64,000 bases of DNA. It comes from a virus. Its lineage: Duplodnaviria > Caudoviricetes. The DNA lies in the IMG/VR virus record IMGVR_UViG_3300043754_000129, positions 64,001 through 128,000 of that record. One strand, 5' to 3'. Below the pieces are notes generated by a model. The model ran no database searches, had not been told where the DNA came from, and was given only the letters and a program-made list of their open reading frames with translations. Below are positions 31,998 through 32,805 of this stretch, in pieces (position 1 is the stretch's first letter; the number at the start of each line of letters is the position of its first letter). A program made the position numbers and the translations under genes.

Positions 31998-32805
31998 TCT
32001 TATTGTTCCAATGAAGGAGTTGGGGGAGACCCGCCTCGCCATAGCGATCCTGGGGTCTCCCTCCGTTTTTGCTCTATGCTTACCACGCTGAGCAGTTGCG
32101 GTCCCGTCATGACGTCGTACCTACAGGGTTGCAGGAATTATGGCCAGGCAGTCCCATTCCCATGTCAATGCAGCTCAAAGGCGGCGAACAGAGGGGATCG
32201 GCGAAAGTGACTCTATATATGCAACTCATCCGGTAGGTCTAGTGTCGCTACCCTACTAAGGGTAGATTTACTCTTGGGAAAGCTTGCGAAAGGGCTAGAT
32301 ATGGCCCAGGTTTATGCGTACGCCGGCGATTTCATGCCCCACCCCCTTAGCCTTTTACGCAAGGCCCTTATGCGCGTGTGATAAGTCAATTGGTCGTGAC
32401 TAACCGTGCCAGCGAGATCTCGCCTGATGAAGGCCGTCGGCAATGTCAATGCATAGCGGACGATGCCATAGCGAGTTGGCCCCTAATACTCCCGGCGCTC
32501 GCCGAGAGGTGTCGCGATACTAGATCCGGTCAATGAGTGCCCGTCCACCACAGTTCCCACACCGCAGTGATCGTCAGAAGCCGCATTCTCGAAGTCTAAC
32601 CGCTAATTCCCGTCAAGGAACAAATCGATAATCTAGTCGAACCGTACATCCGTAAAGCTCCGGATCGTTCTCGCGAGCAGCAGCGCGCGTACACCGCGCG
32701 GGTACAGGTCAGGGAATTCAGTCAGGCCTCGAATGCTATCGTAAAGTGCACCTACCTGTCCCCGCAAGAGGCCTTTCGCCTCCGAAGAATGCGCGCTGCC
32801 CAAAC

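Follow-up and report, generated by a model that had tools for sequence, protein, structure and literature searches.

The gap without genes that follows the tubulin gene phuZ and an acyl carrier protein (ACP) gene in a 324-kb phage genome almost certainly encodes a functional RNA, designated RNA-A, as judged from a sequence that is conserved, covarying and non-coding and has the same sense as the run of genes from phuZ to ACP. The DNA analyzed here (the window, 64,000 nt) comprises bases 64,001-128,000 of a single-contig virus record of 323,678 nt, and the sequencing runs containing window DNA are soil metagenomes. Since the window encodes both PhuZ (PHROG 4733, E 1e-83) and a homolog of chimallin, the nuclear shell protein of 201phi2-1 (27% over 377 aa, E 2e-11, approximately window 16621-17688), the phage is a jumbo phage of the nucleus-forming type; the nearest cultured PhuZ is that of Burkholderia phage FLC9 (39.5%). 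A sequence-only reading of this DNA had proposed that the gap holds a large ncRNA, either like GOLLD and ROOL or of a new class. A large structured RNA-like element, most likely of a new class, is supported by conservation and covariation, with transcription predicted.

Table 1. Window coordinates of RNA-A, its structural parts and the neighboring features.
Feature	Coordinates	Strand	Basis
phuZ tubulin gene, head of the cassette	34782..35786	-	PHROG 4733
RNA-B, second conserved structured element, from the phuZ stop codon	34156..34782	-	conserved, covarying
156-aa ORF with RHAEK motif	33637..34107	-	sequence
Acyl carrier protein gene	33300..33626	-	PF00550 E 4e-16; tblastn
155-aa gene with Walker-A-like motif	32806..33273	-	PHROG 2586
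RNA-A, conserved structured ncRNA, ~780 nt (537-900 nt in homologs)	32022..32801	-	nhmmer, alignments, covariance model
5' domain closed by helix P1	32679..32800	-	covariation
Domain 2, closing helix and conserved unpaired CUCAUU-type bulge	32526..32663	-	alignment
Hairpin with G-rich loop within domain 2	32549..32566	-	covariation, 3-5 compensatory positions
Hairpin with conserved 8-nt loop (CGACCCAU consensus)	32384..32401	-	covariation
CAUGA, 5' strand of proposed long-range helix with 32112-32108	32332..32336	-	putative, little covariation
Hairpin of the sequence-only reading, position conserved, sequence variable	32248..32265	-	
Central arm, conserved block 32222-32214 with 32138-32129 round an internal loop	32129..32222	-	putative, subgroup folds
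Compact H-type pseudoknot with A-rich third loop	32070..32101	-	covariation
Terminal hairpin, 11 bp, capped by CAGGA module (32052-32034)	32022..32063	-	
74-aa four-cysteine gene, directly downstream of RNA-A	31773..31997	-	sequence
tRNA array, 7 canonical tRNAs and tRNA-like genes	29912..31715	-	
Hairpin followed by over-represented 9-mer UUUAUGCCG, closing the tRNA array	29762..29790	-	

Conservation of a gap without protein-coding genes

As had been read from the sequence, no credible coding sequence lies between the stop codon of the 155-aa gene (32806) and the start codon of the 74-aa gene (31997). The longest ORFs located fully within the gap span 45-55 aa, and gene callers call nothing there in the source contig and in near-identical relatives alike. 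Whether ORFs are cut off at 60 or at 75 aa, only one gap in the 323,678-nt genome is larger than the ORF-free core (window 32211-32745). The element had originally been delimited as 32045-32800; a conserved element does exist there, but its true end is 32022 (window 32022-32801), and the 32045 boundary was wrong because it cuts the best-supported hairpin. Small ORFs filling the region, named in the same reading as an outcome that would speak against an RNA, found no support, since no window ORF of at least 25 aa is common to more than three other loci. No protein is conserved, because the distances between conserved blocks vary among homologs through all three frames. Compared to a relative with 97% identity, four single-base indels fall within RNA-A.

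BLASTN against cultured phages gave no match to RNA-A, and relatives were gathered via PhuZ and motif scans. The window sequence alone (nhmmer) finds homologs with E-values of 2e-33, 1e-19, 7e-12, 9e-9 and 3.5e-6, profiles found further copies, prior to their use as seeds, at 1e-108 to 7e-31, and the covariance model matches RNA-A in the window with 115.7 bits. Besides near-identical strains and a single fragment, the resulting set has 13 distinct full-length members (537-900 nt), all from one clade of soil/Burkholderiaceae jumbo phages with one copy per genome. A gap of 0.5-1 kb follows the ACP gene at every locus whose PhuZ is at least 51% identical and which has enough downstream DNA, and neither RNA-A nor ACP occurs in the examined DNA of loci with a PhuZ identity of 48% or less. 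A covariance model of the 3' core found no match in the whole records of FLC9, FLC1-1B, RTH11 and RSF1, or in the 7-13 kb slices of about 60 more distant phuZ loci. Pattern scans with loose criteria, run on metagenomes and genomes, returned at least two true homologs among the matches listed, the rest being mostly chance, and further copies probably exist.

The locus is also present in the assemblies of two cultured isolates, Caballeronia arationis (L014, a contig of 144 kb) and Paraburkholderia sp. BCC1886 (L324, a contig of 286 kb), both contigs being jumbo-phage DNA, so that work on expression and structure would not require the soil phage to be isolated. Among 400 genomes sampled from the family of BCC1886 and searched for PhuZ, BCC1886 was the only match. 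The 286-kb contig has tail-fibre-like genes at both ends, which suggests a free or carrier-state phage. In the literature we found no description of RNA-A, a negative result that is limited to the extent that the supplements of two 2026 language-model preprints are not sequence-searchable; a fragment may sit in these or among 8,495 short viral motifs of 29-151 nt (PMC10690425).

Covariation and fold of RNA-A

Local hairpins in the single sequence had been offered as evidence of structure, an argument that fails: the folding energy of the window copy is no better than that of shuffles on the sense strand (z -0.09), and the opposite strand gives z -2.28 (20 shuffles). Since folding of the window copy is unremarkable, the case rests on comparison, that is, on conservation and covariation. 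The hairpin singled out in that reading (32248-32265) is nevertheless real and is kept in homologs with changed pairs.

The strongest signal comes from the 3' core, comprising the pseudoknot and the terminal hairpin. In a sequence-only alignment, its 22 pairs are 98.2% paired and 12 of them are changed on both sides; 59 cells are changed on both sides compared to 18.9 in shuffles, none of 500 shuffles reaches the score, and pairing drops to 43-56% in slid controls. The pseudoknot is the most conserved part of RNA-A, with CAAC and CUCAGC invariant, stem 1 98% paired, stem 2 100% paired and two compensatory pairs in each stem. In the terminal hairpin (97% paired), 8 of the 11 pairs are changed on both sides; an upstream ATG of the 74-aa gene (32042) falls inside its loop and is lost in L002 and L003, two relatives of the window copy.

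Outside the core, helix P1 (32800-32793 with 32686-32679; 8 bp, 98% paired) has three compensatory positions and closes a 5' domain of highly variable interior. The closing helix of domain 2 (4 bp) also has three. For the hairpin within domain 2, a substitution cluster relative to L002 preserves the stem, and G-U pairs occur in 19 cells and A-C mismatches in none. The hairpin with the conserved 8-nt loop (5 bp) shows compensatory change at all five positions and four co-changes on the tree. Altogether, six helices have at least three compensatory positions under the true pairing rule and zero to two under false rules. These figures, like those for the 3' core, were obtained with a structure chosen on the same sequences as used for scoring. 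Isolated pairs give a modest signal barely above background (15 with at least three co-changes compared to 6-8 in controls), single-pair covariation being weak because the set consists of only 13 related sequences.

Across four helices, G-U cells outnumber A-C cells by 30 to 2, an excess that fixes the minus strand as the RNA sense. To the alternative that the gap is a DNA-level element (an origin, a packaging site or a single-stranded DNA structure) or a cluster of micro-ORFs we give hardly any credence: G-U pairs on one strand only, the spacing of the blocks, the limited sharing of ORFs and the single-base indels argue against it.

In the 537-nt copy from Paraburkholderia, domain 2 is missing, as is most of the 5' domain, whose interior is almost absent. 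P1, the hairpin with the CCCA loop and the entire 3' core are retained and thereby define the obligatory part of RNA-A. The fold of the central domain is putative and partial, because it rests on subgroup folds and a long-range helix that hardly varies. A pairing of the AGUAGUUUAGG block with 32138-32129 was dropped, as subgroup folds pair 32138-32129 with 32222-32214. A candidate kissing interaction of the G-rich loop with the CCCA loop is weak (p ~0.04) and has no genome-specific match.

That the invariant pseudoknot core (CAAC, CUCAGC) might be the active site of a new ribozyme, which excises itself or processes other RNAs, for example the tRNA-like genes, we consider distinctly unlikely. 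Conservation peaking in the pseudoknotted core is the pattern of catalytic and ligand-binding RNAs (PMC5737381), and a 537-nt minimal form exists, but RNase P, group I and II introns, hammerhead, HDV-like and other Rfam ribozymes are unmatched at E<=10, most lineages have no nearby tRNAs, and the alignment contains GAAAC and GUC yet lacks the hammerhead CUGANGA and stem II.

Relationship to known RNA classes

At the gathering threshold and at E<=10, Rfam models found only a chance microRNA match in the gap, and searches at gathering as well as permissive thresholds, covering the window and the homolog loci, returned only tRNAs and chance matches. The comparison proposed in the sequence-only reading, cmscan against Rfam, thus came back negative: RNA-A matches none of GOLLD, ROOL, RNase P, tmRNA and the introns and, given no match at E=10, is none of these by those models. 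The GOLLD or ROOL membership raised there is not supported at the same cut-off. Specifically, the GOLLD model (RF02032) has no match at E<=10 in the region or genome, with a control that was weakly positive in 5 of 14 unrelated genomes. The ROOL model (RF03087) has no cmscan match at E<=10 and none at E<=5 on homolog loci, and a genome search for it was blank, run without a positive control. The tRNA array had supplied the rationale for that membership; however, tRNAs occur downstream, within the 1.5-3 kb examined, in only 4 of 13 distinct lineages, and the argument therefore fails for the RNA-A family. A very diverged GOLLD or ROOL RNA would account for the size, the phage context and the tRNAs nearby in some lineages, but is extremely improbable since neither model matched the window (E<=10), four homolog loci (E<=5) or the genome.

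RNA-A does fit the kind represented by these large ornate phage RNAs, being over 500 nt, non-coding and pseudoknotted with a covarying multi-domain structure, and it shows the published features of complex RNAs with the exception of phylogenetic breadth (PMC5737381). From its sequence, we regard it as a new family within this kind, and its cassette, with a second RNA and an ACP gene, as unusual. Like GOLLD (RF02032; 10.1101/2024.12.08.627333), it is phage-encoded, multi-domain, pseudoknotted, approximately 800 nt long and sometimes beside tRNAs, with a conserved 3' region and a variable 5' region. In contrast to GOLLD, it has different motifs, a fixed phuZ-ACP cassette in one jumbo-phage clade and a second RNA sharing a module with it; moreover, GOLLD forms an RNA-only multimeric nanocage (10.1101/2024.12.08.627333), and oligomers of RNA-A are hypothetical. 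ROOL (RF03087; PMC5737381) is likewise a large ornate RNA of phages and prophages with a mean of 581 nt, compared to 537 nt for the minimal RNA-A copy, but has three pseudoknots and spans three phyla, whereas one pseudoknot is supported in RNA-A and a single clade carries it.

Other classes gave no better correspondence. RNase P RNA, tmRNA, SRP RNA and 6S RNA yielded no Rfam match or ARAGORN tmRNA call, and for the catalytic core of an intron, whether P7 of group I or domain V of group II, there was no Rfam match at E<=10; with respect to the flanking exons of an intron, RNA-A has intact genes on either side or is closed by a terminator. Words resembling RNase P and domain V had no model support, a likeness by eye to 23S domain V and 16S was attributed to chance given no profile match on the E. 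coli rrnB operon, and an rRNA mimic was discarded, words in common with rRNA equaling those of shuffles. Protein-sponge RNAs such as CsrB and RsmZ contain CAGGA. Unlike these, RNA-A has a single CAGGA per RNA, in an internal loop, and a CsrB-like sponge was rejected on the frequency of GGA (177 compared to 188 expected) and ANGGA (29 compared to 40) in RNA-A.

Bacterial and phage RNAs of more than 500 nt with complex folds are rare, those known being ribozymes or nanocage-forming, and ncRNAs of nucleus-forming jumbo phages are barely described, with one passing mention in a 2026 review. The RNA-A family offers a natural 537-nt minimal form, a module-sharing sister RNA and a fixed protein context.

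The phuZ-ACP cassette and the proposed origin and role of RNA-A

The cassette starts with phuZ and RNA-B, continues with ACP, which a RHAEK-motif gene may precede, and ends, after one more optional gene, with RNA-A; phuZ, RNA-B and ACP are found upstream of RNA-A at every locus with upstream DNA. The co-occurrence of ACP, RNA-B and RNA-A counts as a single event rather than co-evolution, because it is confined to one clade. The RHAEK-motif ORF had no Pfam or PHROG match and is, by its motif, a probable member of the histidine-phosphatase family; in L324 the phosphatase-ACP pair occurs twice. According to gene tables, the 155-aa gene is also optional, being absent from most homologous loci. Its 3' half (32806-33150) has 73-90% identity to L002 and L003, with flanks of approximately 99%, which suggests recent exchange or rapid change.

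RNA-A and RNA-B share a module near their 3' ends, consisting of CAGGA, a 3-5-bp stem with a variable loop and then G, that is present in 26 of 26 copies of the two RNAs (13 of 13 for RNA-A). Its strict form occurs exactly twice in the genome, the RNA-B copy being located at 34247-34229, and the RNA-A covariance model finds 34218-34257 in RNA-B (E 0.004). In L010, a 46-codon ORF lies within the loop of the last hairpin of RNA-B.

In L390, the corresponding locus has phuZ, then 315 nt and then a homolog (E 2e-14) of the 124-aa gene that follows RNA-A elsewhere; the whole cassette is lacking, and hence behaves there as one unit, either present or absent. This joint absence, the variable gene cargo flanked by both RNAs and the tolerance of RNA-B in L010 for a small ORF in a loop would suit a single intron-like or mobile element reaching from RNA-B through the cargo genes to RNA-A, its ORFs being looped out, or the two halves of a split RNA. 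We nevertheless judge this very improbable: no helix between RNA-B and RNA-A covaries above the genome-swap null, no intron domain matches, RNA-A ends at a terminator with no 3' exon, and the cassette has no annotated transposase, reverse transcriptase or homing endonuclease.

Several observations bear on how RNA-A would be produced. The upstream gene varies between loci and the start of RNA-A stays just past the stop codon, with P1 beginning 5-25 nt downstream after a U-rich linker, an arrangement that speaks against a promoter dedicated to RNA-A; a search of the RNA-A strand gave no sigma-70-like site. In 8 of 13 lineages the terminal hairpin is directly followed by a U-run and AUGCC (the 9-mer or a close variant). 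The 9-mer UUUAUGCCG occurs 25 times in the genome, compared to 1-5 times in shuffles, and follows hairpins; at 29762-29790 the hairpin and 9-mer are the probable terminator of the whole transcript in this genome. A conserved terminator motif is reported for phiKZ and 201phi2-1, and UUUAUGCCG may be equivalent to that motif.

RNA-A would therefore, in our model, lack its own promoter, be co-transcribed with phuZ, RNA-B and ACP and be set free when the transcript is cleaved in the U-rich linker, with P1 shielding the new 5' end. Its 3' end would be the terminal hairpin, doubling as the terminator stem in the 8 lineages, and would arise by processing where a gene and tRNAs follow, as in the window. 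Processing-derived phage ncRNAs have a precedent in phiKZ and PAK_P3, where UTR-derived ncRNAs are promoterless and freed from mRNA by processing or termination (10.1101/2023.10.13.562163), much as predicted for RNA-A; the examples considered here are approximately 90-210 nt, and RNA-A exceeds them four- to eightfold in length and has a covarying pseudoknot core.

The role that we favor, at somewhat short of an even chance, is that of a scaffold or decoy, stable and acting in trans once cut out of the phuZ-ACP transcript, with a CAGGA-binding protein common to RNA-B. The released RNA would fold round the obligatory 3' core (long-range helix, pseudoknot and terminal hairpin), with optional 5' domains, and would be an abundant RNA with a structural role away from its own transcript. 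Like GOLLD and ROOL, it may form oligomers. The CAGGA module would be the docking site for one protein, of phage or host, that handles both RNAs, and the purpose would likely be host takeover or counter-defence alongside the phage ACP.

Alternatively, RNA-A could act in cis as a 3' or intercistronic element of the phuZ-ACP mRNA, where it would affect how stable the mRNA is, how it is processed or how it leaves the phage nucleus, or would sense a ligand through the pseudoknot. Its constant position on the sense strand straight after a stop codon, the probable terminator at its end and the small-aptamer topology of a compact pseudoknot with an A-rich loop are consistent with this idea, and the pseudoknot presumably resembles preQ1-I, for which there was no Rfam match. 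However, a length of 540-900 nt with several domains far exceeds the needs of a stability hairpin, most lineages have no gene to regulate before the terminator, and RNA-A is kept as neighboring genes change, making a cis role unlikely. A bolder extension of the trans-acting reading, which we rate as quite improbable, has RNA-A and RNA-B as the two RNA subunits of an undescribed ribonucleoprotein machine with a shared CAGGA-docked protein, a catalytic or ligand-binding pseudoknot and the ACP and phosphatase as partners; if true, it would place ACP and phosphatase in the same host-takeover or carrier-state system of nucleus-forming phages.

Conserved non-coding sequence also follows phuZ in FLC9 (L142:8077-8848) and in an IMG/VR relative (L402:6991-7510), with no significant match to RNA-A or RNA-B; the former is a candidate ncRNA in a cultured phage. 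A post-phuZ gap at L403:7012-7596 has a few RNA-B-like motifs by eye, under the profile threshold, and is possibly a remote RNA-B with neither RNA-A nor ACP nearby. No Rfam match was obtained for further long gaps, poor in ORFs and rich in GC, that lie near the tRNA clusters in FLC1-1B and FLC9 (L005:7440-8210 and L004:7450-7930).

Finally, only one part of the clade has the tRNA array inserted downstream of RNA-A. Three of its minus-strand genes (30000-30129, 30501-30630 and 30911-31038) are tRNA bodies with 50-55-nt inserts in the anticodon loop, in which a T-arm, a closed acceptor-like stem and a D-arm-like element follow in that order; by sequence, each insert is a circularly permuted second tRNA body of YrlA-like order, and FLC9 has similar genes. 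A fourth tRNA body (30753-30887, minus strand) has a 57-nt structured insert without a T-arm, with analogues in FLC9 and FLC1-1B. The two items missed by both ARAGORN and Rfam (31585-31715 and 31160-31270, minus strand) are, respectively, a tRNA-like gene of the Ser/Leu type that contains a long insert, and an unassigned sequence in the spacer that separates tRNA-Asn from tRNA-Ser. A second tRNA cluster, outside the window at genome 238070-239443, forms the largest ORF-free gap of the genome and includes two tRNA-like genes with 4-base anticodon calls.
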